A stretch of DNA of 64,000 bases, from the IMG/VR virus record IMGVR_UViG_3300001097_000002, positions 32,887 to 96,886 of that record; one strand, written 5' to 3'. Below, in pieces: positions 7,685-23,678 of the stretch. The notes under the pieces are model-generated. The model was given only the letters and a program-made list of their open reading frames with translations. It was not told where the DNA came from and searched no databases. Each line of letters starts with the position of its first letter. Positions within the stretch are counted from its first letter, which is position 1. Source of the DNA: a virus. The translations under genes and the position numbers were made by a program.

Positions 7685-8794
7685 TCACTCGTCATTACCT
7701 AAAAAATCATCGCCACCATCCCAATCATCGCCACCACCTAACATAGTTTCATTAGTATCAACTTCGTCGTGAATTAGTTTACCACTGCTAATTTGATACA
7801 TAGTTTCCACGTCTGAATGGAATTTCTCTTCTGCAAACAAAGGACCCCAGAATTTAGAACTATTGGTATCTTTGGCGCGCCACTTCTGGTCTTCTTGTAC
7901 ACCTTCAATAACTCGACTATACCAACCATTTGATGGTTTTTTAATATAACCTACATTCATGCCCACTTCTAGCATACCAGTATACTTATTCATACCACCG
8001 TCAAAACGCATTTCGATTGGAAACTTAGATTTCTCTTTACAGTAACGACTTTTCTCAACGTTCATAATCAAGTTAAATCCAGTAATTTCTTTACCTTCTT
8101 TTTCTTGTTGTCGTCCCATAATGAACACTTGGTCACTTGAATACATGATACCTGAACCACCAGAAACAACAGCTTTTGAAAACAGTTCCATTGTTTGATA
8201 TACATGCGCTACCCCAACCATAACAATTTTCATGATACGCAAGTAAGGTGTGACAATACGTGTTAATGATTTTAGTTCTTTAGCACGTGTCATATCAGCT
8301 TTGGCTTTACCTTCTAGTGCATCCTCTGCTTCTTTCTTACTTGCTAAGTTACCTAAGCTGTCAATATAGATAAACACTTTCGCACCTGGATATTCTTTCT
8401 TAATCATATCAAGTTGTTTAACAAGGTCAAACTTCAAGTTTTCAATGTTAAGAAGTGGCATATGCAAGATACGTGAAGTATCAATATCCAAACTGTCAAA
8501 ATATGATTTAGGTGTACCGAACTCACTGTCATAAAATAACATGATAGCATCAGGATACTTGGTCATATACGCTTTCGCGCACACGTTAGACAGTACACTC
8601 TTACCATGTTTACTAGGACCCGCAAACAATGTCAAACCAGGTTTTAGTCCACGTCTTAAACTACCAGAGAACGCTAAATTCATTAGCGGAATATCAAGTA
8701 GAACATCCTCTTCGTCAAAAAATACACTGTTATCCAAACCATCAGTGCCTTCAATAATACTGTTTTTCTTTAACGCTTTTAGCATACTACTCAT
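7685..8794 (-). CDS. uvsX: RecA-like recombinase UvsX
   Basis: AGPSKHGKS Walker A, FYDSEFG, IDSLGNLASKKE, DMTRAK, VSGGSG, KSRY. Confidence 0.96.
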   Translation of the reverse strand: MSSMLKALKKNSIIEGTDGLDNSVFFDEEDVLLDIPLMNLAFSGSLRRGLKPGLTLFAGPSKHGKSVLSNVCAKAYMTKYPDAIMLFYDSEFGTPKSYFDSLDIDTSRILHMPLLNIENLKFDLVKQLDMIKKEYPGAKVFIYIDSLGNLASKKEAEDALEGKAKADMTRAKELKSLTRIVTPYLRIMKIVMVGVAHVYQTMELFSKAVVSGGSGIMYSSDQVFIMGRQQEKEGKEITGFNLIMNVEKSRYCKEKSKFPIEMRFDGGMNKYTGMLEVGMNVGYIKKPSNGWYSRVIEGVQEDQKWRAKDTNSSKFWGPLFAEEKFHSDVETMYQISSGKLIHDEVDTNETMLGGGDDWDGGDDFLGNDE

Positions 8795-8803
8795 ATAATT
8801 CCC

Positions 8804-10295
8804 TTAAAAGAATGTTTTTCTGTTATGTGATTTCTTCTTGCCTACGCTTGTATCCTCAGTGGTTACATTAGCGCTTGCAACTAGACCATTATCAATATTT
8901 TCTCCATCACCAAACTTAAATATTGAACCTGAATGACGAATGTTATAATTTAATAGTTTAGTAAATGATTCAAGCGGACGCATAAACGTCACTTCAAACA
9001 TATTTTTTCTGTCTATGTAATTGTCAAGATTAAACTCCTTTGGTAATTCATCAGGATAACCAATTACAGTTGAGTTAAGTGGATTTCCGTCTACTAGGTC
9101 AAGGTACTTAATTTTACTGCCGCTTTTGATTATGGGGTGGTTCTTAGTATGGATATCACTACTTCTAACAAAGTTGTTATATGTTATAGCAGCGCGTACA
9201 TGTTTAGGACAACGCTTGATAGGTTGATTGTTTTCGTCACTCCATTTCTCAATCCCGTTAACACCTTTTGGATATGCAATTTTATTAGGATGTAGGTTTT
9301 TATAATCATTTCTAAATCCCTTAACATACTTGCGCAAACCGTCCTCGTCGCGTGTAACCATATATTTAATACATTCTGTTAGGCTGTTACGTATGACCGC
9401 AGGTGTAGAAGTCCTATTGGTTTCAATACCAAGCATTTTAAGTTTAGGCTCTGTATAACGTACGTGCTCCATATCATATACGTTTAATATATAGTTCTTT
9501 TTAGCTCGGAAAATAGCACAATCACAAATTGCCTCGCGTTTCATTATCAATCTGTTTTCCATACCGTTTAAGTATTCTGATAACTCACCGTAAGATTTTT
9601 CTATAAATGGTTCAATATTATCATGTACGTATTCGTCAATTATTGTTATTACTTCATTAGTATCAGTATTGACTGGTAAACTGTCAACCAATGGTGCAAC
9701 TGTAAAATATAGACTATCAGTGTCACCATAAATTGTATAGTCTATATTATTAGTTTTAAATTGTTCATTTAAAAAACCATTAAGCTTTTTCTCCATATAT
9801 TTAATTGCCAATTGACCTGTAGACGTAACAGCTTCTGCTATCTCACGTTTGAAATAACGAAAGCCTTCATTTCCAATCGCACCATAACCCAAGATATTAA
9901 TTCTGAACCGATAACTAACCTCAGAATAAAAGTATTTTACTACTTTTGCAACATGTCACCATGTTGATTAGACTATATCATGACCCATTCTCCAGGGCCC
10001 TCACCGTTTCCAATACTCTTGTATTGTACTCTACTAACTGCGATTAAGCGCTTTCGATAGTCGTTGCACGCATCCCGTAGGACTTTGTACATGATTGTCT
10101 TATTGTGGCTCAATAAGAGTTCCCATGTTTAGATGAGTTATTCACTTACACATTACCATGTAAGGCAGCAGTCTTGTTTTACTTGCTTTTACTGTTTGCA
10201 AGAATCTTGTAGGCGTATTGTAGTGCGTCTTCTCTGCTAACATCGTTCTCTAATTCAGCTATGCGTTTATTAATAGACGCAATATCTTTATACAT
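8804..10295 (-). CDS. gp43: DNA polymerase gp43 piece 3 (gp43B: fingers C-helix, palm motifs B/C, thumb); exon 1 10295-10191, exon 2 9889-8804
   Basis: Exon 1 MYKDIASINKRIAELENDVSREDALQYAYKILANS + exon 2 GYGAIGNEGFRYF restores motif B KILANSGYG; YGDTDS, MKRE, KKNY motifs. Confidence 0.93.
9890..10190 (-). mobile_element. Group I self-splicing intron, 301 nt, no ORF
   Basis: 5' exon ends in U (AAC AGU|), intron ends in G (..AUCUUG|GGU); R element GUGCAACGACUAUC and S element AUGAUAUAGUCUAA give P7 GACUA/UAGUC; removal restores reading frame. Confidence 0.93.
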
Positions 10296-10390
10296 ACTTT
10301 AAATATTCCTTATCTTTTGATACGATTGGATTATCGTAATTAAATATGTAACGTTTATCAGTATATTGTTGATACATAATAAACTTAATA

Positions 10391-11113
10391 TCACTTAATT
10401 CCATCTTTAATCATATCCTCTCTGAGAGCATATAACTTTTGTAACTCTCTTTCGCTGTCTTTCATACCACTCTTAATAACACTACGAGTATCAAACAAGT
10501 TTTCCATAGTGGCTGCAATAACACCAATTTTGTCTTTTGAATACAATGTACCATTAGCAGCAAGGCAATAATCTTTTTCGTGTGCTATTTTGGTACTATA
10601 TTTCATATCTATCATACTGTTTAATATATCGTCTACGTGCTCCTTTGATTTCATCACAAGAGTTTCAGCGCTCATGTTTAGCATCATTATGATAGATGGA
10701 TACAAGCTTTTTAAATCGCCACTAACAACCCAGTCAGTGCGTCCTAATACAGGTTCTTTAACGTGACCACCCATATAACTTTCACCGCCCTCAGCGTATA
10801 CTTTAGGAGGTATGACAATGCTATCTCTATCAAGTCTAGCGTAAATCATATTGTCCCATGGTTGCACGGTTGCAAAAATATCACTTGGGTTACTACGGCT
10901 TACGTGTGCAAATGATAACGCCACCTGAATAAAGTTTAGCTTGTTATCAAGTTTAGATATTAATACAGTATCAGTCTCGTTATAGTCAATAAATGTGTTG
11001 AAGCTGTCCTGTTTAACTTTTTGGTTAACATCATCATATAATTTCTTAAGCTGTTCAAAACTCAACTTGTCAAGATGGTTCTCGACAAGCATTTCATACT
11101 TTTTTAAATTCAT
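10391..11113 (-). CDS. gp43: DNA polymerase gp43 piece 2 (ExoIII, palm motif A, first fingers helix)
   Basis: FIDYNETD (ExoIII), YMGGHVKEP, SGDLKSLYPSII (motif A), ANGTLY. Confidence 0.93.
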   Translation of the reverse strand: MNLKKYEMLVENHLDKLSFEQLKKLYDDVNQKVKQDSFNTFIDYNETDTVLISKLDNKLNFIQVALSFAHVSRSNPSDIFATVQPWDNMIYARLDRDSIVIPPKVYAEGGESYMGGHVKEPVLGRTDWVVSGDLKSLYPSIIMMLNMSAETLVMKSKEHVDDILNSMIDMKYSTKIAHEKDYCLAANGTLYSKDKIGVIAATMENLFDTRSVIKSGMKDSERELQKLYALREDMIKDGIK

Positions 11114-11203
11114 ATATCACCAATGTTAGATGTTAAAAAAGGGCACCTAATTATTATAGGCGCCCATTAGTATAACATAAAATTTTATAATAGCAAGATA
11201 TAA

Positions 11204-11476
11204 TTAGATTTGCAATTTCAATTTATTAGCAGCACAATACGCACGCATAGCTTCATCAAGCAAAAGTTTATTATAACCAATCTCTATTGAATACATGTCA
11301 TTTACTAGCACCAGCGGCACTAAATTACCTTTCATATCAACATTAACCTTTGCGATAGGTTTTATATTAGTATCAAAAGTTGTCTTAGTTATATATTTCA
11401 TATCATGGTTTTTATCAAAATGATATAGAATGATAAAATCATCTGCGTTTGGTTTGTAGCTCATATAATACTCCAA
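11204..11476 (-). CDS. Hypothetical protein
   Basis: ORF with GGAG SD before MSYK. Confidence 0.55.
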   Translation of the reverse strand: MEYYMSYKPNADDFIILYHFDKNHDMKYITKTTFDTNIKPIAKVNVDMKGNLVPLVLVNDMYSIEIGYNKLLLDEAMRAYCAANKLKLQI

Positions 11477-11491
11477 ATAATAAATTAGTTT

Positions 11492-12106
11492 TTATAGATA
11501 GTCTACGATAGTATTACCTGGCGTTCCGAACATAATTTTCGTATGTTGACCACCACCAAGTTCACGACTGTAAAAATACTCTGCTAGCTCTGGATACTTC
11601 TTAGGATAAGCCGGGTCGACATGTTCAGTGTTCAGTTTCTTACCTAGAATATCGCGTGCGTCATCAACTGTCTGTGCATACTTAATCGCTTCTGACATAC
11701 CAATTGAGCGCACAACAAATTTGAGCATACCGGCACTAGTTTCACCCATTGAACGGTCAAATTCATTAGATACCAAATCAGCCAACGCAATCGCGCCTTG
11801 CTTTGTTTGGTTTGTGAAACTAGCTACTGACTTACGACCATTTTTGTCTTTGTACAACTTACCGGCAATGATTTCACCGTTTTTTCGAATCAGTTTCCAA
11901 AACGTAATATTAAGCATATCTTCAGGACTATCAAAACCAGACCCTTTAATACCACCAATCTTAGCATATGAGCGTTGAACTAAGTCCCATACTACTAACT
12001 TGTGTTTTTCTTTCTTCTCGTTATCACCAATGATATTAATGTAACGTTCGTTAAGGTCGTTACCACTATCGCGTTCATGTAAGTAATCTTCAAATGCAAC
12101 TGTCAT
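11492..12106 (-). CDS. Putative internal head protein (capsid-targeting-like N-terminus)
   Basis: MTVAFEDYLHE...DLNE. Confidence 0.65.
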   Translation of the reverse strand: MTVAFEDYLHERDSGNDLNERYINIIGDNEKKEKHKLVVWDLVQRSYAKIGGIKGSGFDSPEDMLNITFWKLIRKNGEIIAGKLYKDKNGRKSVASFTNQTKQGAIALADLVSNEFDRSMGETSAGMLKFVVRSIGMSEAIKYAQTVDDARDILGKKLNTEHVDPAYPKKYPELAEYFYSRELGGGQHTKIMFGTPGNTIVDYL

Positions 12107-12128
12107 TATTTATTCCTTTCTTAGTTTA

Positions 12129-12653
12129 TCAAGATAATACTGGATATTTATACTTTCCGACGTCCTGAATCCCATCAATTATATCAGGGGTCCGGCAAAT
12201 ACGATGGTGTCCATTGTCAAAGTATTTAACGTCATAGTTATCAGGGAAGTTATCAAATACGGCTTTAACTCCATTGTAATCAATGACTTCATCATCTTTC
12301 TCAACCAATACAGCAACATCTGCCTTACTTGGAATGAATTTAGTATTGTCATCGCAAATCTCAGGACGGTTCAATGTTGGGTTAATACAAGGACTAATCA
12401 ATACCGCATTATGTCCATATTTTACACTCATTGCGTTTGCAATGTAAGCGCCCATACTGTGACCAACAACAATAACGTCTTCATAATCACTCAAATCTTC
12501 AACCGCTTTACTAGCAATTGCGAGGGCGTTCTCCAAGCCATCATCATAGTCGATTGCAACAGCAACCTTATTAGTGAAAATGATATTAGTGAATTTGTCA
12601 GTATTAACACTACTGCCATATCCGTGAAAAAACAAAATGATAGAATCTTTCAT
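12129..12653 (-). CDS. Alpha/beta hydrolase (YqiA/UPF0227-like esterase)
   Basis: FFHGYGSS, nucleophile elbow GHSMG, DEVID, GHH. Confidence 0.85.
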   Translation of the reverse strand: MKDSIILFFHGYGSSVNTDKFTNIIFTNKVAVAIDYDDGLENALAIASKAVEDLSDYEDVIVVGHSMGAYIANAMSVKYGHNAVLISPCINPTLNRPEICDDNTKFIPSKADVAVLVEKDDEVIDYNGVKAVFDNFPDNYDVKYFDNGHHRICRTPDIIDGIQDVGKYKYPVLS

Positions 12654-12715
12654 TAACTTATCTCCTTAAAGATTTATTATAACATAATATATACTATGGC
12701 ACAACCGTAGAACCC

Positions 12716-13183
12716 TTACAATTGCGCGTATGTGAAATCATCAAGTTCATCAATAACACATTGTAAACCATTATCTTTGAAACGGTTGTAAAAGTAATTA
12801 ACTTCCTTTGAACTCAAATTATACCCTATGGATAAATCATGAAGAAACTTAGAAGTTAGTTTTGATTTCTTGGAATTATACTCGCACACGGCCGCTTTAA
12901 AGTCATCTTCAGCAACGACAACTTCGCGCACTGAATAATCAATAACAGTTTCGCGGACAATGGCTTTTTTAACGCCTAACATATCATAGTAAACATATGC
13001 ACCTTCAACCGTTTCGCGCATGCCTACAACTCGACCTAACTTGTAATAGTAGATGGTTGTGAACATTGACTGTGTTGGTACTGGTGTATCGTTCATTGTA
13101 TATTTATCTAAGTTATTCATAATAATTCTCCTATCATTTAAACTGTTTCTCAAAACTACCACTAAATTATATAACAGCCACAA
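12716..13183 (-). CDS. Hypothetical protein (likely start MNNLDK near 13120)
   Basis: AGGAG SD upstream of the internal Met. Confidence 0.6.
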   Translation of the reverse strand: MWLLYNLVVVLRNSLNDRRIIMNNLDKYTMNDTPVPTQSMFTTIYYYKLGRVVGMRETVEGAYVYYDMLGVKKAIVRETVIDYSVREVVVAEDDFKAAVCEYNSKKSKLTSKFLHDLSIGYNLSSKEVNYFYNRFKDNGLQCVIDELDDFTYAQL

Positions 13184-13229
13184 AAAAGTGTAAAGCTATA
13201 TTACATAACTTTACACTCAATGATTTAAA

Positions 13230-13661
13230 TTAAATTGTTTCGACTGATTGATAATCAATAACAGTAATAGGTACAGGTTTAACTTCAAAGTATTCAGTAC
13301 CGTCAGTATCAAATCCGTAATAACTTTCGTAATACCCGTGACATAACAGATATCTACCACTAGGCATATGTTTTACTACTTGTTCCCAATGGTCACCGTC
13401 GCCTTCTCCGCCTTGACGCCTAACAATTTCGTATAACGTTTTTTCATCAAACGCACGTAACTTGTCTTCTAGCGCATCAGTACGTTCTCGCATTTCTACT
13501 CTATCGTCACCGTTAGTTTCAACAAAATCACTAAATTGATACATAAATTCGTCTGCAAAAAATACTCTAAGCTCATTCATAACATCTTTAAAAGTTTCAA
13601 ATGATAATTCTTTACCATGTACCATTTCTTCAAGTGTGCTGATAACGTCTTCGAATTCCAT
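13230..13661 (-). CDS. Hypothetical protein, paralog array member
   Basis: QGGEGDGD, GYYESYYG, C-terminal FEVKPVPITVIDY. Confidence 0.7.
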   Translation of the reverse strand: MEFEDVISTLEEMVHGKELSFETFKDVMNELRVFFADEFMYQFSDFVETNGDDRVEMRERTDALEDKLRAFDEKTLYEIVRRQGGEGDGDHWEQVVKHMPSGRYLLCHGYYESYYGFDTDGTEYFEVKPVPITVIDYQSVETI

Positions 13662-13716
13662 AGTGTTTTCCTTTTTGATAAAATTATATGTTACTAGTTT
13701 TTAACTACATTGTCAA

Positions 13717-14064
13717 TTATAATATATAGCAATCTGCACTATCAAGATGATACTTATTAACCATTACTTTTTCCTGTATTACTTTATCCCATTTATCATG
13801 TACCCACATTTCACTATACAGTTCTTCAAAGCGCGATTGTTGATAATACTCGCCACTGACTTTATCAACATATATGTTAAAGTCAAAATAACTGCCGTGT
13901 TCAAATGACTCTACATATTCCATGCGCTCGTCAAACGCATTGACATCATCCATGAGCAAATAGCAAACAGTTACATCATATGCAAACTTTGTGCGTAATA
14001 CCAGTAAGACTTCTTGTGGTAGCATATATTCACGGTTAATAAAACGATTATATAATTCTCTCAT
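13717..14064 (-). CDS. Hypothetical protein, paralog array member
   Basis: C-terminal WDKVIQEKVMVNKY. Confidence 0.6.
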   Translation of the reverse strand: MRELYNRFINREYMLPQEVLLVLRTKFAYDVTVCYLLMDDVNAFDERMEYVESFEHGSYFDFNIYVDKVSGEYYQQSRFEELYSEMWVHDKWDKVIQEKVMVNKYHLDSADCYIL

Positions 14065-14073
14065 AACATAAGC

Positions 14074-14226
14074 CTAAATGTTGGTGTATTGGGTAACAGT
14101 AACTTCAGCGGTTTCGTATTGATATAATTGCACCAAATCAATGCAACAACCATCCATCAACACAAATAACATATCATCACGTGCTAGTTCTTTGTTGTTT
14201 AAGAAATCGTTAATTAAGTTTTTCAT
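14074..14226 (-). CDS. Short 50-aa paralog remnant (not in ORF track)
   Basis: MKNLINDFLNNKELARDDMLFVL...ETAEVTVTQYTNI; ATGA-coupled; N-terminus resembles 13717-14064. Confidence 0.55.
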   Translation of the reverse strand: MKNLINDFLNNKELARDDMLFVLMDGCCIDLVQLYQYETAEVTVTQYTNI

Positions 14227-14569
14227 AATGTTCGACACTCGTATTGTACATTTACAAGCTCTACTTTATCCCAATACTCCCAGTTTTCTGCTGTGCCATT
14301 AAGTCTATATAAGAAACCAAATGATTTAATGATAATATAGTTATAAGGCCCTTCCATTGATACGTCAATAATTTCAATGGTGTCAAGTGAAATAACATGA
14401 TGCATATATTTACATGCGTCTGTCATCAATTTCTTATCTCTTACATCAAACAGAACATTATTGTTTAAAAATTCAGCACCACTAAACTATGTTCAACAGA
14501 CATTCTGGCGCACACGATGTGACGTTGTTCTTTTGATAATCCTGCTAATTCATAACTACTCATAATCAT
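14223..14569 (-). pseudogene. Frameshifted paralog-array gene
   Basis: GGAG SD + ATG at 14569 (MIMSSYELAG...) stops early; adjacent frame (FSGAEFLNNNVLFDVRDKKLMTDAC...WDKVELVNVQY) continues; shift near 14485. Confidence 0.55.
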
Positions 14570-14603
14570 TCTCCAATAATAAAATTTATATTAAACAGTA
14601 TTG

Positions 14604-14975
14604 CTAGTACGGAGTATATACTGTTATTGTTTTTTCATGCGGCATAACTCTAGTCCAATTACCTATTTCGTATGATAGTGTATCGTATATCCTGTTAGGA
14701 TACGTAAACATATAATATACATCAGTATGTATACATTGCACAACTAAACAATCCTCTTCATCATCATCGCTACCTATAGACTCATATTCAAACATATTCC
14801 AAAATGCTTCATATAGTAACGAATGGTTAACAATAATATCATCAACGATTACCGTCTCAATTGTATCAGCATCATTTAAATCAATTTTTACAAGCGTGTT
14901 TAACAAATCAAGCAAGTCAATATTTTGCATTCTTTCATTTGCTAAAAACAAACCTAGTCTATCTAAAATATTCAT
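14604..14975 (-). CDS. Hypothetical protein, paralog array member
   Basis: C-terminal WTRVMPHEKTITVYTPY. Confidence 0.65.
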   Translation of the reverse strand: MNILDRLGLFLANERMQNIDLLDLLNTLVKIDLNDADTIETVIVDDIIVNHSLLYEAFWNMFEYESIGSDDDEEDCLVVQCIHTDVYYMFTYPNRIYDTLSYEIGNWTRVMPHEKTITVYTPY

Positions 14976-15883
14976 AATGAAAACTCCAATGATAAAATTT
15001 TACGATAATAGAACGGGTCAAATGCATCAATAATATCTGAGTAATTATCAATAGCAAACGCTCTAAAGAAACCACTTGCTAAGTCAGTACATACACGCAT
15101 CAATGCCCACATAAAAGAGCTTCTAGCGTAATATTCTTTACTGTCATTTACTAGTTTTGGAATGATGCATCGTTCACTAGCAATCACGTAACACTCTTCT
15201 AATACAGTTTGCACTTTTTCTAATTGTGTGAACTTATTCCATAAATGCTTGTAACATAACACTTCTCCGTTCTTCTGCATTTTATTATACATGGGTTTAT
15301 CATTATGTGCAAACACTTCATGCAAATAATCATGTTCGATATATTTCTTAACACCATCATCAAAAAAATGTTCTTTAGTAACATTTAGTTTAGGCAACTT
15401 TTGCGCACCAAGTCGCAAGTCTGTATCAATTCTTTGCGTTCTGATTAACTCGCTCACTGTGTATGCGCTTGTTCCATATTGTTCATCATCAGTTAAACCA
15501 CGTACTCGGTTTAACTGTACGAGGTCACTCATATGCTTATCCCATTTACGCATACGTTGGTGGATATGACCACGTTTGATAATGTATAGCATAGTTGTAT
15601 CAGCAAGGCTAATAGGCGCCCTGTAATAGGCGTTATATAGCTCTGCTAGTGTATTATCATATGCTACCAATAGTTCAATACGCTGCTCACCATCATTAAA
15701 TGGGATAATGCTGTCTTTAGATATCTTATCCCTAAAACGATACGGAATGTCTTTTGGCATAACCACAACATCCAAATCAGCTTTTGTTCTATCATCAAGA
15801 ACAGTAATCGCTTGGCTACCAACAACAATACCGTTATAAATACCGTTACTATGTAACAGCGCTTTTATATCATGAATATTCAT
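14972..15883 (-). CDS. Putative Pol-beta-type nucleotidyltransferase-domain protein
   Basis: VVGSQA...ADLDVV (GS-x-DxD); conserved-looking EHDYLHE, EECYVIASER. Confidence 0.6.
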   Translation of the reverse strand: MNIHDIKALLHSNGIYNGIVVGSQAITVLDDRTKADLDVVVMPKDIPYRFRDKISKDSIIPFNDGEQRIELLVAYDNTLAELYNAYYRAPISLADTTMLYIIKRGHIHQRMRKWDKHMSDLVQLNRVRGLTDDEQYGTSAYTVSELIRTQRIDTDLRLGAQKLPKLNVTKEHFFDDGVKKYIEHDYLHEVFAHNDKPMYNKMQKNGEVLCYKHLWNKFTQLEKVQTVLEECYVIASERCIIPKLVNDSKEYYARSSFMWALMRVCTDLASGFFRAFAIDNYSDIIDAFDPFYYRKILSLEFSL

Positions 15884-16151
15884 AAATCACCCTTGTTACT
15901 GGTTTAACTTCATACCATTCTTGTTCGTTGAATATGATGTGTGTACCATTGCGTGTATGTTGATAATAGCCGTTTTGTCGATAATGTTTACCATCATATG
16001 TGATAATCATATACGCTTGACTATCAGTCAATATTTCTATAGCCGTACATTCAGCGCGTTCAACCATGGTATCATTAATCATGACACCATATTCAACGCT
16101 TGCGTGAACTAGATGTTTATTGAGTTTATCCAAAAATTCGTCCTGTAACAT
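15870..16151 (-). CDS. Hypothetical protein, paralog array member
   Basis: DGKHYRQNGYY...WYEVKPVTRVIYEY. Confidence 0.65.
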   Translation of the reverse strand: MLQDEFLDKLNKHLVHASVEYGVMINDTMVERAECTAIEILTDSQAYMIITYDGKHYRQNGYYQHTRNGTHIIFNEQEWYEVKPVTRVIYEYS

Positions 16152-16229
16152 AATCCCTCCAATAAAAAAGTGACATACGAAATCATCTTATGCCACAATT
16201 ATAACAAATTATTGATGCGCTGTAAAGGT

Positions 16230-16634
16230 CTAAAACAAATCAACTATATTCTCAGAAAGTATTCTTGCGAAATCACCATCTAACGGTTTTGAGTTATACA
16301 CCATATTGTGCTTGATTTCAGCAATTGACAATCCTGACGGTTTAGATAGTTCTACTGCTAATGCGTTAACATTTCGCAGCGCAACATCATTAATTATATT
16401 ATCCTCGTTTTCTGCGCAATACTCCCATAATGTCATCAGTAATTCAGTAGTCATCATTTCAGCATATGCTAAGTTTTTAAACTGATAAGACATAACAATT
16501 GCTCTGGCGGTTGGCCTATACATTGTAACCGATACACCACTAAAATTTGATAATTGCATCGCCACTTCTATTTGATATTGTAGGCTAACAATCAAGTCGC
16601 CATCATCAAACTTAACAATTTCTTTAAATGTCAT
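16230..16634 (-). CDS. Hypothetical protein
   Basis: Overlaps end of gp43 piece 1; GGAGGAG SD. Confidence 0.65.
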   Translation of the reverse strand: MTFKEIVKFDDGDLIVSLQYQIEVAMQLSNFSGVSVTMYRPTARAIVMSYQFKNLAYAEMMTTELLMTLWEYCAENEDNIINDVALRNVNALAVELSKPSGLSIAEIKHNMVYNSKPLDGDFARILSENIVDLF

Positions 16635-17823
16635 TGTTCTCCTCCAACATCATATCAAGTCTTGTGGCAACCATAGTTCTAATCCTTGCCCATCGGTCTT
16701 TTTCTGGTAGTTCTTCAATGTTTGTTTCTTCTGGTAGTTCTTCAATGTTTGTTTCTTCTGGTATATCATACACACCACAATACAAGTTCATTAGACTGTC
16801 TTTGTATTCGCTATAATTTACTTTTTTCTCGCCAAGCTCAACATCAGAAATATGGTCAAGTGTATATCGTTCTTGCTTAGCCTTTGCGTACTGTTTATAT
16901 AATGCCATATAGTCTAAATGAGTAAGACCAAAGATATTATATTCTAATGATGGTGCTCGCTTGTTTTCTTTAATAACGTTCTTACCGTATGCACTAAATG
17001 GACTTAGTTTATTAGTAACAGCGTTACCTACAATCTTTCTAGCGCGAGTTACAAGATATGGTATATCAAATAACACACCAAACCAACTAGTGATAAAGTC
17101 AAACTGTTCGTCTACAAAAACGTTGATAAATGCCGTAATCAGTTCTTTCTCATTTCTACATTGTAGATACTCAATATCCGATTTTCCAGTATACCCTTTT
17201 AATCCAAGTCCGCCTGTTTTAACAATGTTATGTCCAACGATAACTTGATAGGTGATACTAAGAATTTCAGCAATTGCATCCTCGGGTTTCGGAAAGCCGA
17301 TGTTCTGGTCAGCATACGTAGAGTCTTTATACCAAACCATTTTTTTATAGAACGGGTCCATCACTTTAATATCAGCAAGATTATCGAAGTTTTTAATTTG
17401 TTTGTAAAATGCTTCTTTAGTTGGACCCTTACCTTCTTTATATACAACGGTGTCGAAATTCGTATATGTAAAACCATCACCATGATTAACTTCAATATCA
17501 AAGGATATCGTTTTATACAAAGGTTCGTCCACGCTTACTTCTTCATACTCCTTTGATATAAATTGCTGTATAGGTGAAGTGTTTCCGAATATATTTTCCA
17601 TTTGGTTGTTGTGTACGAAATCATTAAGCTTATATATAGTATCAAATTCGATACGTTTTAACTTGTCACCATACAAACTAATATAGTCTCCACTTATACT
17701 TTTTGTGAATAGTTCATATGGATAGTTTTTTACAATCTCAATATGACGTTCACCATCTTGTATATAACGATGAAACAGCGTGTCGCCCATTGTTCCCACG
17801 AACGTATAATACCGCTTACTCAT
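16624..17823 (-). CDS. gp43: DNA polymerase gp43 piece 1 (N-terminal domain + ExoI/ExoII)
   Basis: YYTFVGTMGDTLFHRYI, SFDIEV (ExoI), GFPKPEDA, TSWFGVLFDIPYL (ExoII), HLDYMALYK, YTLDHIS..ELGEKK. Confidence 0.92.
   Translation of the reverse strand: MSKRYYTFVGTMGDTLFHRYIQDGERHIEIVKNYPYELFTKSISGDYISLYGDKLKRIEFDTIYKLNDFVHNNQMENIFGNTSPIQQFISKEYEEVSVDEPLYKTISFDIEVNHGDGFTYTNFDTVVYKEGKGPTKEAFYKQIKNFDNLADIKVMDPFYKKMVWYKDSTYADQNIGFPKPEDAIAEILSITYQVIVGHNIVKTGGLGLKGYTGKSDIEYLQCRNEKELITAFINVFVDEQFDFITSWFGVLFDIPYLVTRARKIVGNAVTNKLSPFSAYGKNVIKENKRAPSLEYNIFGLTHLDYMALYKQYAKAKQERYTLDHISDVELGEKKVNYSEYKDSLMNLYCGVYDIPEETNIEELPEETNIEELPEKDRWARIRTMVATRLDMMLEENNDI
16702..16763. repeat. 27-bp tandem duplication (2.3 copies) encoding PEETNIEEL x2
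   Basis: ttctggtagttcttcaatgtttgtttc repeated exactly. Confidence 0.95.
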
Positions 17824-17861
17824 TTATAATCCTTAATAGTTAACAGATATACAATTATCAT

Positions 17862-18362
17862 TTAGTCGAACAGATTCTCATTCCATTCACGATGCCCTTC
17901 CCTAAATGCCATATTCGATTGTGTTTCTCGAACAGAAACTCTATAGCACCACACATTTTTAGCAACTTCTTTACCAAACGCTTCTTCGATAAAAATACCG
18001 TTAATGTACTTGTACACGAAGTCAGCGATTGATTCACAACCAGTATGCTCAACTTCAGTAATTTTAGCAATACCTAGTTCACCTAATGCTTTAATTTGGT
18101 TGTACATTGGGTCATCACTACTTAGCAATAAAGTATGGTCAAACCATTCCTCCAACTTTTCTTTAAGTGGTTTCAAACCACCGTATTCTACTTGTCCCCA
18201 ATTACGTGTATCTAATTCATTTGAACCAAAATATAATTTAAAACTAAAACTATATCCATGTATTTTATTACAGTGTGAATCGGCCCTCCATTGTCTGTAT
18301 GCACACGGAAAAGCATCGACATATTCTTTCGTGACTGTGTATTTGTAATTTATGTTATTCAC
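17862..18362 (-). CDS. queD: 6-carboxy-tetrahydropterin synthase / PTPS family
   Basis: CNKIHGY, LKEKLEEWFDHTLL, GCESIA, VSVRET. Confidence 0.85.
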   Translation of the reverse strand: MNNINYKYTVTKEYVDAFPCAYRQWRADSHCNKIHGYSFSFKLYFGSNELDTRNWGQVEYGGLKPLKEKLEEWFDHTLLLSSDDPMYNQIKALGELGIAKITEVEHTGCESIADFVYKYINGIFIEEAFGKEVAKNVWCYRVSVRETQSNMAFREGHREWNENLFD

Positions 18363-20779: not shown

Positions 20780-20916
20780 CGGGTTGACTAATTTTTGGTT
20801 ATATGTTAAATTACTATGTAAATACGCACATAATCAATTACTATGAATGCCTTTGTCAATTCAACCCAAACTATAAAAATATTTCTTTTAGTAAATACAA
20901 TAAAAAGGAATATAAA

Positions 20917-21906
20917 ATGGTTTACTACACTTACGAGATACAGTGCAATACAACAAACAAGCGTTATATAGGTTCGCGCATTACTGCAAACAGAGTTGAT
21001 ATTTTAGACGGGTACTACACATCATCAAAAGTAGTTGCGCTATTAATAGAAAAACATGGCATTGATAATTTTAGTGTGATAGGAACTAAACTACACGACA
21101 CACAAAAAGAAGCGATTAAATATGAAAATATCCTGTTACTGAACGCTAAAAACAATAGGCATAAGTACTTAAATATTAATTTTAGCAGTAGTGTTAATGG
21201 AGCAGTAATTAAAACACAAAGCCATATAAAGATTACTAATACGAAAACAAACGAATGTATATACTACCCTAAAAATGTTTCGCTGCCAAAAGGGTGGATA
21301 AAAGGTACTAACTGCAAACCACCTTCGAGAAAAGGGTTTAAGACGTATTATAATACTGAAACAGGTATTACACAGATACTTGGGCCACATGATGATAAAG
21401 TTGGTTACGTGCAAATTACAGCTTATAAAAAGCTATTAAAAAATAAAATGAAATCTCAAAGGGGTATACGATGCGTATGGATAACAAATGGTACCAGTAA
21501 CACTAAAATATACAAAGATGAGAAACCAAGAAAAGAATGGTGGTTTGGTAAAACGTCTAAGGCAACAAAGCATATTATAACAAACGGATATGAATCTAAG
21601 TGGACCAAACGTACTGATGAAATTCCAGATGGATGGAAGAAAGGAAAACATTATAAAACGTTTAGTACTAAAGGTATGATTAGAATAACTGACGGATTAT
21701 CAAACAAAATGATAAACTCCAGTGAAAAAGTACCGGAAGGATGGTTTAAGGGCAAAGCAAGTAAAAAAATATACATATATGATAATGTCACGTTTTTAAA
21801 CAGAAAATTATTACTAGAGTATCTTAATATATCTGCCAACACGTTTAACTACAATCAATTAAAAAATAAATACGATGGTATACTAGTCGTCAAGGAAAAT
21901 ATATGA
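20917..21906 (+). CDS. Free-standing GIY-YIG homing endonuclease (Seg-like)
   Basis: YYTYEI...KRYIGSR, YYTSSK, E..L...YLNIN; repeated ITNG...P.GW..G DNA-binding modules. Confidence 0.88.
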   Translation: MVYYTYEIQCNTTNKRYIGSRITANRVDILDGYYTSSKVVALLIEKHGIDNFSVIGTKLHDTQKEAIKYENILLLNAKNNRHKYLNINFSSSVNGAVIKTQSHIKITNTKTNECIYYPKNVSLPKGWIKGTNCKPPSRKGFKTYYNTETGITQILGPHDDKVGYVQITAYKKLLKNKMKSQRGIRCVWITNGTSNTKIYKDEKPRKEWWFGKTSKATKHIITNGYESKWTKRTDEIPDGWKKGKHYKTFSTKGMIRITDGLSNKMINSSEKVPEGWFKGKASKKIYIYDNVTFLNRKLLLEYLNISANTFNYNQLKNKYDGILVVKENI

Positions 21907-23678
21907 ATATAAAGATACACTACTATAATGAAATATATATGCGTATTGAAACTGAACGTAGCATTGAATATGAATTGCGTGATGAATTTTCATTTTTCGC
22001 AAACGGTTATATGTATAATAATAAGTTCAAGAGTGGACAATGGGATGGTAAAATACGCTTGTATAACGGGCGCGACAAAACGTTATACGTTGGTTTACTA
22101 TTTGATTTATATAAGTTTGCTAAAAATAACGGCTATACAATCACTGTAAACGAGGATGATAAAAATCAATTCAAACCGTCCGTTGTACTTGATGACGCAT
22201 GGATTGAGCGTTTTAATAATGGTATGTCTTTATATCCATTCAAAGAATATCAAGAAAAGGCTTTTATTCAGGCTATCAAATATAATAAAACGCTTATCCT
22301 AAGTCCAACAGGTAGTGGTAAGAGTTTCTTGTTATATGCTATCGTTCGTTACTTGATTGACTGTGGTCACGTGGGTGGTAAGAAGCGTATGCTCATTAAC
22401 GTTCCAAATATTGGTTTAGTTACTCAATTACTATCGGACTTTAAAGAATACACCACTGATGGTTTTGATATCGAGAACTACATTACCCAAGCGGGTGGTG
22501 ATAACGTTGAAGATGATAGCAAACCAATTGTTATCAGTACGTGGCAGACTTCTATGCGTAAACCACAAGAATATTTTGAGAGTTTTACCGCATACGCGCT
22601 CGATGAAGCACACCAAGCAACTGCTAAAGAAATCACCAACATTATTGACAAACTTGAATTTTGCAAGTTTAAAATCGGTATGACTGGCACACTTGACGGC
22701 ACCTCAATGCACGAATTAGAAATGAGAGCGCGGTTTGGTAAACTGTATAGAGCCGCAACTACTAAGCAATTGATGGATAGTGGTGACCTTGCTAAGCTTG
22801 CAATTGATGCTAGAGTTATAATGTATGGCGAGGACGATATCAAAGCGCTACACAAGGAGATACGTGGCAAAACAGCGGTATTAAAGTATAAGGCTGAGAT
22901 TGATTATATCGTTGAACACGAAGGTCGTAACAAATATTTAATGGATACTGCATTTGCCACTGATAAAAATACATTGATGCTTTTTAACTATGTTGATAAA
23001 CACGGTAAGGTTTTACTCGAGAAAATGATGCCTTTACAAGATGAACATTGCAAACGTGTATACTTCATATATGGTGGTGTTAAAGGCAACGAACGTGAAG
23101 AGATTCGACAATTGCTTGATAAAAAGCCTCCTGTATGGTACGACATTTATGTAAGCGACAATGAATTTATTCGCATTCGTGGGTCAAAAACTATTACATT
23201 AACAGATGGTAAAACAGTAAGTGGTTACGATTTACAGCTTCACAAGAAATATGATATATGTAATGAATGGTTGAGGACTGTTATCGAGAACGAATTACAT
23301 TACAATACCATTTCATATAATGACGAAGTAAATTACAAATCCACAAAAACTGTTGTTAAACGCGGGTCATGCATTTTGTTAGCGTCATATGGTACACTGA
23401 CCGTGGGTATTAATATTAAGAATTTACATACGTTATTATTATGTCACCCTGTTAAAGGTCAAATACGGTTATTACAAAGTATCGGGCGTATCCTACGTAA
23501 GACGAATGATAAAAATGAGGTAACACTTATTGATGTTGTTGATAACTTAGAAAAGAAAACCGCTAAGAAAACAAGCAAAAATACGCTACTAAAACAGTTT
23601 TTAACACGTTTAGAAATATACGAAAAGCAAGAGTTTGATTACAATATTAGTAAAGTATCATTAGAAAATAACCAATAG
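21903..23678 (+). CDS. uvsW: UvsW SF2 helicase with about 80-aa insertion
   Basis: WDGKIRL, SPTGSGKS, DEAH, GMTGT, ASYG...GINIKNLH, QSIGRILR. Confidence 0.95.
   Translation: MNIKIHYYNEIYMRIETERSIEYELRDEFSFFANGYMYNNKFKSGQWDGKIRLYNGRDKTLYVGLLFDLYKFAKNNGYTITVNEDDKNQFKPSVVLDDAWIERFNNGMSLYPFKEYQEKAFIQAIKYNKTLILSPTGSGKSFLLYAIVRYLIDCGHVGGKKRMLINVPNIGLVTQLLSDFKEYTTDGFDIENYITQAGGDNVEDDSKPIVISTWQTSMRKPQEYFESFTAYALDEAHQATAKEITNIIDKLEFCKFKIGMTGTLDGTSMHELEMRARFGKLYRAATTKQLMDSGDLAKLAIDARVIMYGEDDIKALHKEIRGKTAVLKYKAEIDYIVEHEGRNKYLMDTAFATDKNTLMLFNYVDKHGKVLLEKMMPLQDEHCKRVYFIYGGVKGNEREEIRQLLDKKPPVWYDIYVSDNEFIRIRGSKTITLTDGKTVSGYDLQLHKKYDICNEWLRTVIENELHYNTISYNDEVNYKSTKTVVKRGSCILLASYGTLTVGINIKNLHTLLLCHPVKGQIRLLQSIGRILRKTNDKNEVTLIDVVDNLEKKTAKKTSKNTLLKQFLTRLEIYEKQEFDYNISKVSLENNQ

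Follow-up and report, generated by a model that had tools for sequence, protein, structure and literature searches.

ORF-less group I introns in T4-type family-B DNA polymerase (PolB) genes have already been published, and the intron analyzed here represents a new insertion site in such a gene. The 64,000-nt stretch of viral DNA that carries it, referred to as the window, comes from an IMG/VR virus contig of 96.9 kb whose completeness is estimated at 43%. The intron of Aeromonas salmonicida phage 25 and gene 43 of phage 44RR are reportedly the subject of a study by Petrov, Ratnayaka and Karam (J Mol Biol 2010). According to two reviews, Intron 25.g43B of Aeromonas phage 25 has no endonuclease gene of its own and a free-standing one has been predicted for it, and gene 43 of 44RR contains only a short intercistronic insert (PMC2993671, PMC2988022). 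The phage 25-type intron, in the arrangement found in phage Aes002, is of a type reported to be self-splicing. In the annotated record of Aes002 (GenBank JN377896), 43A is followed by a GIY-YIG endonuclease gene and by an intron-containing 43B.

The locus in the window resembles those of phage 25 and Aes002 in that an endonuclease-less group I intron interrupts motif B of a T4-type family-B polymerase whose gene is broken at the fingers tip, the intron being in the C-terminal cistron. The Aes002 intron has the same P7 and J8/7. In contrast, the insertion site in phage 25 and Aes002 is situated 13 nt further downstream, after YGA and the first base of a Leu codon, and a GIY-YIG gene separates the cistrons where the window has a 95-nt spacer only. 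Moreover, the polymerase of the window has a third split and is only ~40% identical to those of cultured T4-like phages (cyanophages, Acidovorax phage ACP17). Phage 44RR (43A/untranslated sequence/43B) reportedly shares with the window a fingers region split by a short non-coding insert without an endonuclease, but it has no intron, and the spacer of the window is spanned by a 38-codon ORF.

BLASTN searches with the intron sequence matched polymerase loci in two Aeromonas phages, Aes002 and Aes151, and in JSE-like coliphages. The intron core is ~74% identical to those of the gp43 introns of Aes002 (over ~120 nt) and of JSE, which score 73.3 and 42.9 bits, respectively, with the Rfam model RF00028. 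Phage JSE (NC_012740; PMC2993671, PMC2988022) likewise has a T4-type PolB gene, gp43, that carries a group I intron with a similar td-like core, but this intron is inserted in motif A (DLTSL/YPS), has a length of ~465 nt and is said to contain a truncated endonuclease gene (PMC2993671). The introns of T4 td, nrdB and nrdD are of the same structural type as the window intron, but they interrupt genes of nucleotide metabolism, and they encode endonucleases of their own or did so in the past. Features common to the td intron and the window intron are P7.1/P7.2 between P7 and P3', GAUAUAGUC at J8/7-P7' and P9 capped by a GNRA loop.

Studies of the cyanophage psbA intron and the free-standing endonuclease F-CphI are reportedly those of Zeng, Bonocora and Shub (2009) and of Bonocora and Shub (2009). 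In this model an endonuclease-less intron is mobilized by an adjacent free-standing endonuclease whose target is interrupted by the intron. The window differs from it in the gene affected and in the absence of the partner from the window. The psbA intron and F-CphI are cited in PMC2993671 and PMC2988022. Furthermore, group I introns occur in PolB genes of crAss-like phages (bioRxiv 10.1101/2020.07.20.212944), and archaeal PolB has three fixed intein sites (PMC549080). A preliminary description of the window had assigned the known phage polymerase introns to family-A genes, which is contradicted by the family-B polymerases of phage 25, JSE and the crAss-like phages. It had also suggested that the insertion site may lie one codon from the pol-b intein hotspot (N/S).

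The split polymerase gene and the boundaries of its intron

The polymerase gene of the window consists of three cistrons, the third of which is interrupted by the intron:

16624..17823, minus strand: polymerase cistron 1, 399 aa, N-terminal domain, ExoI and ExoII (tblastn with the ACP17 polymerase; Pfam DNA_pol_B_exo1)
10391..11113, minus strand: polymerase cistron 2, 240 aa, ExoIII, motif A and first fingers helix (Pfam DNA_pol_B; alignment)
10296..10390, minus strand: AT-rich spacer, 95 nt, 21% GC (cistron 2 stop at 10391, cistron 3 start at 10295)
10191..10295, minus strand: exon 1 of cistron 3, ATG, 35 codons, second fingers helix to KILANS (alignment)
9890..10190, minus strand: ORF-less group I intron, td-like (subgroup IA type), 301 nt (RF00028 match)
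8804..9889, minus strand: exon 2 of cistron 3, 361 codons and stop, GYGAIGN..., motif C (YGDTDS) and thumb (Pfam DNA_pol_B)

Cistrons 1 and 2 are 5.5 kb apart, with unrelated small ORFs between them. This first split, between ExoII and ExoIII, is common to the proteins P0002-P0006, P0008 and others, which have the same start as the 240-aa piece; on the sequences compared, it is shared across the clade. The split at the fingers tip is absent from P0002-P0006, which are continuous at this position. As in split T4-type PolB genes (43A/43B), the cistrons of the window are broken at the fingers tip and jointly cover one PolB. Exon 2 is followed by a UvsX-like gene (8794..7685, minus strand), and this order of polymerase and recombinase genes is common to the window, cyanophages and Acidovorax phage ACP17. 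A terminator-like hairpin (GGGCGCC...GGTGCCC, then TTTTTT) was noticed at ~11135-11165 on the minus strand, directly ahead of cistron 2, so that transcription of cistrons 2 and 3 and of uvsX may be separate from that of cistron 1. The C-terminus of cistron 1, just before the split, contains two copies of a tandem peptide repeat, PEETNIEEL (~16702-16761, minus strand).

AAGGA is found 11 nt upstream of the ATG of cistron 3. The last codons of exon 1, AAG ATT CTT GCA AAC AGT, encode KILANS, and the exon aligns to ...LDALQYAYKILANS of uninterrupted relatives. Exon 2 opens at 9889 with GGT TAT GGT GCG ATT GGA AAT (GYGAIGN) and is 67-76% identical to P0002-P0006 across its whole length. Joining of 10191 to 9889 gives AACAGT/GGTTAT and thus KILANS/GYGAIGN. 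This is the uninterrupted reading of all five proteins P0002-P0006, ...YAYKILANSGYGAIGNEGFRYF..., so that the junction predicted in the preliminary description equals their continuous sequence; the spliced cistron 3 comprises 396 aa. These proteins (621-624 aa), which were found in a large protein search, begin like the 240-aa ORF and run unbroken through ...LDALQYAYKILANSGYGAIGNEGFRYF.... If both splice sites are shifted by one base in either direction, NRGY or NSSY results instead of NSGY. Since shifted sites break the NSGY of P0002-P0006, the junction is fixed to the base. The coordinates of the 301-nt intron, its KILANS and GYGAIGN flanks and its U...G boundaries had been given exactly: U10191 directly precedes the 5' splice site, the intron RNA starts with AAAAGC and finishes with CUUG, and the G at 9890 is the terminal intron base.

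The Rfam search proposed earlier was run, and in an 801-nt search (9700-10500) RF00028 matched 10218..9949 with 61.8 bits (gathering score 50, E 3.7e-15) over the full length of the model (1-253). The longest ORF inside the intron has 51 codons, and unspliced RNA reaches a UAA stop four codons into the intron. This score and the short internal ORF support the earlier assignment to an ORF-less group I intron in motif B; judged by its sequence, 10190..9890 is a complete group I intron without an endonuclease ORF of its own. RF00028 was not reported in two Rfam runs over the whole 64-kb window, one with gathering and one with E-value thresholds. This is an effect of the speed filters, which drop the intron, and not of its score. 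Hence, the absence of a covariance-model hit, which had been put forward as evidence against the intron, would mislead in a routine scan because the filters drop the intron at 64 kb. Other structured RNAs in large windows may vanish from 64-kb Rfam searches in the same way as this 61.8-bit intron.

A search of sequencing runs found the sequence in one DNA run, derived from a hypersaline lake metagenome that is probably its source, and in no RNA run. The independent Logan assembly of this run is identical to the window from 9500 to 10700 (zero differences, depth ~16) and contains no intron-less junction. Megablast of the locus against phage records gave no match, and neither did pattern scans of IMG/VR with the 3' part of the intron plus exon and with the 5' end of the intron. 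It is very probable that the third PolB cistron is split between Ser and Gly of motif B by a functional-looking td-type intron without an endonuclease gene.

The 35-codon exon 1 was expected to be missed by gene callers and the Lys-x3-Asn-Ser half of motif B to be lost in automated annotation. Both are borne out by the public protein P0001, in which the TTG at the very end of the intron was called as a start codon; the protein thus starts with MGYGAIGN and is devoid of the K-x3-NS part of the motif. In at least 6 other protein clusters (P0007, P0009-P0012, P0015) the sequence is truncated at this position; metagenomic T4-like polymerases are thus mis-called at this motif B site. Four protein clusters start with MGYGAIGN and two more run into GYGAIGN from upstream, which hints at interruptions at the same site. 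Many metagenomic proteins begin 28-36 aa before the Lys of motif B. The value of the locus is mainly in this correction of annotation and in the comparative series described below, and the current understanding of group I introns is unchanged.

Related introns and the proposed partner endonuclease

A pattern scan of JGI metagenomes yielded 111 pattern matches, of which only L101 (JACCDZ012043267.1) was a polymerase locus. This contig, 1778 nt in total, contains a 40-codon exon 1 ending with KILANS and an exon 2 starting from GYGAIGN. The L101 intron is homologous to that of the window and located at the identical site in a gene with the same fingers-tip split. It has a length of 327 nt, scores 57.6 bits with RF00028 and is 57% identical overall to the window intron. 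Unlike the window, L101 has an HNH endonuclease gene which abuts exon 1, its stop overlapping the exon-1 ATG, and an intein in motif C. The intein is located at ~1279-1629, right after YIDTD (Intein_splicing, E 2e-6, below cut-off), and the polymerase gene of L101 thus combines endonuclease gene, intron and intein in 1.8 kb.

L123 and L124 (IMG/VR) share with the window an ORF-less intron in motif B, but their insertion site is 9 nt further upstream, after KIL (KIL/INAAYG). The two loci are near-identical and their introns differ by one base. A 310-aa endonuclease-like ORF is located at the split in L124, whereas the sister locus L123 has neither the ORF nor the split. ORF-less introns in motif B therefore occupy at least three sites, which lie at +9, +18 and +31 relative to the Lys codon and so fall within 22 nt of one another, and the window adds the third such site in T4-type PolB. 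Each site is represented by a copy whose fingers tip, ~100 nt upstream, carries an endonuclease gene. In the partner-bearing relatives Aes002, L101 and L124 this gene is located exactly at the fingers-tip break and abuts exon 1.

The partners belong to different families, of which GIY-YIG (annotated) and HNH are well supported and a PD-(D/E)XK-like type weakly. The gene of Aes002 is GIY-YIG according to the annotation of the record, and a Pfam scan gave no match. A full-length homologue of the L101 HNH-type gene, P0117, matched PHROG 655 ('homing endonuclease', 6.9e-21) and PHROG 12434 ('HNH endonuclease', 6e-14); the L101 ORF found no match in the ESM Atlas and P0117 none in a PDB sequence search. 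The 310-aa ORF of L124 has weak PD-(D/E)XK-type matches. Among cyanophage-like IMG/VR loci, 16 of 80 were split, the break being at the fingers tip in 13 and after motif A in 3, and between the halves some contained small ORFs, or ORFs with HNH-like motifs recognized by eye, and others were empty. Six cyanophage-like loci from IMG/VR (L125-L129, L191) have a conserved ORF between the polymerase halves at the fingers tip, which is open over 89-109 codons and reads ...AHGVCATG...TSG....

No endonuclease families were detected in the ORFs of the window from 7685 to 18362 and none within 10 kb of the intron, nor does a free-standing endonuclease gene of the phage 25 type adjoin the intron in the window, nor does the 96.9-kb contig contain a homologue of P0117. 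The window hence shows a state with the intron but without the partner endonuclease. Dependence of the intron on a free-standing endonuclease, as suggested in the preliminary description, fits the relatives, although no such gene adjoins the intron of the window. We propose that introns of this type would spread together with a free-standing homing endonuclease whose gene occupies the fingers-tip split immediately ahead of exon 1. In the window this slot now holds the 95-nt spacer, and the intron is probably an orphan which lost its partner, a loss deduced from absence in a contig that represents 43% of the estimated genome. The orphan would persist because its exact removal is indispensable.

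More generally, introns may use motif B of T4-type PolB as a landing pad with several sites, in which case the many fingers-tip splits of PolB in uncultured T4-like phages, including the spacer of the window, would be scars of endonuclease loss and the introns would be left behind as orphans; we put this forward tentatively, as a reading slightly short of an even chance. The window together with L101, L123/L124 and phage 25 forms a natural series for the model of joint homing of introns and free-standing endonucleases. The same series bears on how endonuclease invasion fragments an essential gene.

The best surviving alternative to an orphaned intron is an active intron that is still mobile in trans, served by one of two endonuclease-like ORFs in the contig, by a gene in the unsequenced 57% of the genome or by a co-infecting relative. 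One of the two ORFs is of HNH type and lies outside the window (contig 13144-13332). The other is the candidate nearest to the intron:

20803..21906, plus strand: candidate homing endonuclease, GIY-YIG-like, 367 aa (PF01541 18 bits, below cut-off; PHROG 314)

This ORF matched PHROG 314 ('homing endonuclease') with an E-value of 3.6e-9, but it is 10.6 kb away from the intron and on the opposite strand, while free-standing endonucleases normally cut near their own gene. With ~43% of the genome in hand, a further gene could be encoded elsewhere, and since the intron served by the L101 HNH gene occupies this very site, a co-infecting L101-type phage could cut intron-less alleles. On the other hand, the partner gene directly abuts exon 1 in 3 out of 3 partnered relatives, the contig is without a homologue of P0117, and neither of the two endonuclease-like ORFs is linked to the polymerase. 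Mobility in trans thus seems rather unlikely, and we favor the orphaned intron. The N-terminus of the ORF at 20803-21906 reads YTYEI...YIGS and is accompanied by repeated GW-KG motifs, and the ORF overlaps the start of a helicase-like, possibly UvsW-type gene (21903-23678).

The fingers-tip spacer

The spacer between cistrons 2 and 3 is missing from the closest relatives and is located where Aes002, L101 and L124 have free-standing endonuclease genes. Its GC content of 21% compares with 34-35% in the flanks. A 38-codon mini-ORF (10404..10288, minus strand) spans the entire spacer and overlaps both neighbouring cistrons, cistron 2 at its stop and cistron 3 at its start, as ATGGAATTAAGTGA and ATGTATAA. 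By our own estimate, the chance of a 38-codon open frame in DNA that rich in AT is roughly 4-12%. The mini-ORF may link translation of cistron 3 to that of cistron 2.

The succession of cistron 2, mini-ORF and cistron 3 in three frames with two +1 shifts, at a position where the closest relatives are continuous, could raise the suspicion that the breaks at 10404-10288 are assembly or sequencing errors and that exon 1 is part of a longer 5' exon. We consider such errors very improbable. The second assembly shows zero differences across the region at a depth of ~16, and the fingers-tip split is therefore taken as real. Because the relatives do not have the extra ~95 nt, the spacer is an insertion and not a frameshift, and its base composition differs from that of the flanks. 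The same fingers-tip splits are common in uncultured T4-like phages and have been published for phages 25 and 44RR. In any case, errors of this kind would leave the intron call unaffected.

Further interpretations of the spacer were rejected. As to a remnant of an endonuclease gene, the spacer resembles neither P0117 nor the L101 ORF, which also counts against loss of the partner. A search of its surroundings for a duplication of the target-site kind gave no more than a 16-nt repeat (81%), which is at chance level. Ribosomal bypass of the gene-60 type or programmed frameshifting across the spacer is disfavored by the lack of matched take-off and landing codons on inspection by eye, and also by a stop in the cistron-3 frame two codons before the ATG.

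Fold and predicted splicing of the intron

The elements of the intron fold referred to below are:

10058..10062, minus strand: P7 5' strand GACUA (invariant in four introns)
9971..9975, minus strand: P7 3' strand UAGUC, inside J8/7-P7' GAUAUAGUC (invariant in four introns)
9949..9966, minus strand: P9 hairpin with GNRA (GUGA) loop (four introns compared)
10166..10170, minus strand: predicted internal guide sequence UGCUG (assigned by inspection)

P2, P3, P4, P5, P6/P6a, P7, P7.1, P7.2, P8, P9, P9.1 and P9.2 are fully paired, as determined by inspection and by script. An unconstrained centroid fold regains P2-P6a, P8, P9, P9.1 and P9.2 (z -2.6). The P7 pairing GACUA/UAGUC had been recognized in the preliminary description and is present at 10062-10058 and 9975-9971, unchanged in four related introns. 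P3 is formed by CUCAUC and GGUGAG, and the strand order P3-P7-P3'-P7' corresponds to the P3/P7 pseudoknot topology. Between P7 and P3', GCG/CGC and AGUAC/GUAUU form P7.1/P7.2, a feature of subgroup IA (td-like). The exact sequence GATATAGTC occurs only once in the 96.9-kb contig.

Comparison with related introns supports conservation of the fold. Between the window and L101, P2, P3, P5, P6a, P7.1, P7.2, P8, P9, P9.1 and P9.2 are paired despite differing sequence, and P7 is unchanged. Across four introns, four pairs of P9 are preserved via two-sided changes, and RNAalifold found two-sided changes in 14 out of 33 pairs. A decayed, non-splicing remnant would imply either a dead gene or an enzyme assembled from four peptides, in which K-x3-NS and YG of motif B are on different chains. 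It might be suspected since the intron-end TTG lets gene callers start at MGYGAIGN and since the gene is already fragmented elsewhere, but it is very improbable, because all core helices are intact with compensatory changes relative to L101, the RF00028 score is above the cut-off, both exons have open frames with 67-76% identity to relatives that are intact, removal of the intron restores the motif precisely, and the polymerase is essential.

For a splicing-competent intron the following route is proposed. The primary transcript would adopt the P1-P9.2 core fold. In the predicted P1, the guide UGCUG (intron nt 21-25) would pair with the exon sequence CAGU and the A that opens the intron. The U.G pair at the splice site would consist of U10191 and intron G22. 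The predicted P1 is short (5 pairs) and P10 is weak. Free guanosine bound by P7 would attack 3' of U10191, and the released exon end would then attack after the terminal G at 9890. The resulting mRNA AACAGU-GGUUAU would encode a 396-aa subunit with motif B intact, starting from the ATG at 10295. The 12 last exon and 27 first intron nucleotides differ between the window and L101 at one position, with 39 of 40 identical. Such near-identity of the exon-end/intron-start block is as expected for P1 and a guide sequence. The region of the predicted P1 is identical in L101, the sole homologue at the same site, and thus shows no covariation.

Another pairing is possible in this region: a helix of exon CUUGC (10202-10198) and intron GCAAG (10186-10182) would enclose the 5' splice site in a loop of 11 nt. 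This pairing competes with the proposed P1 and is unchanged in L101 (window 10166-10202, minus strand). In the same metagenome run, a second, unrelated contig of 1088 nt matches the P7'-P9 part of the intron only (9947-9989; 43 nt, 6 differences), and therefore points to another td-like intron in that community.
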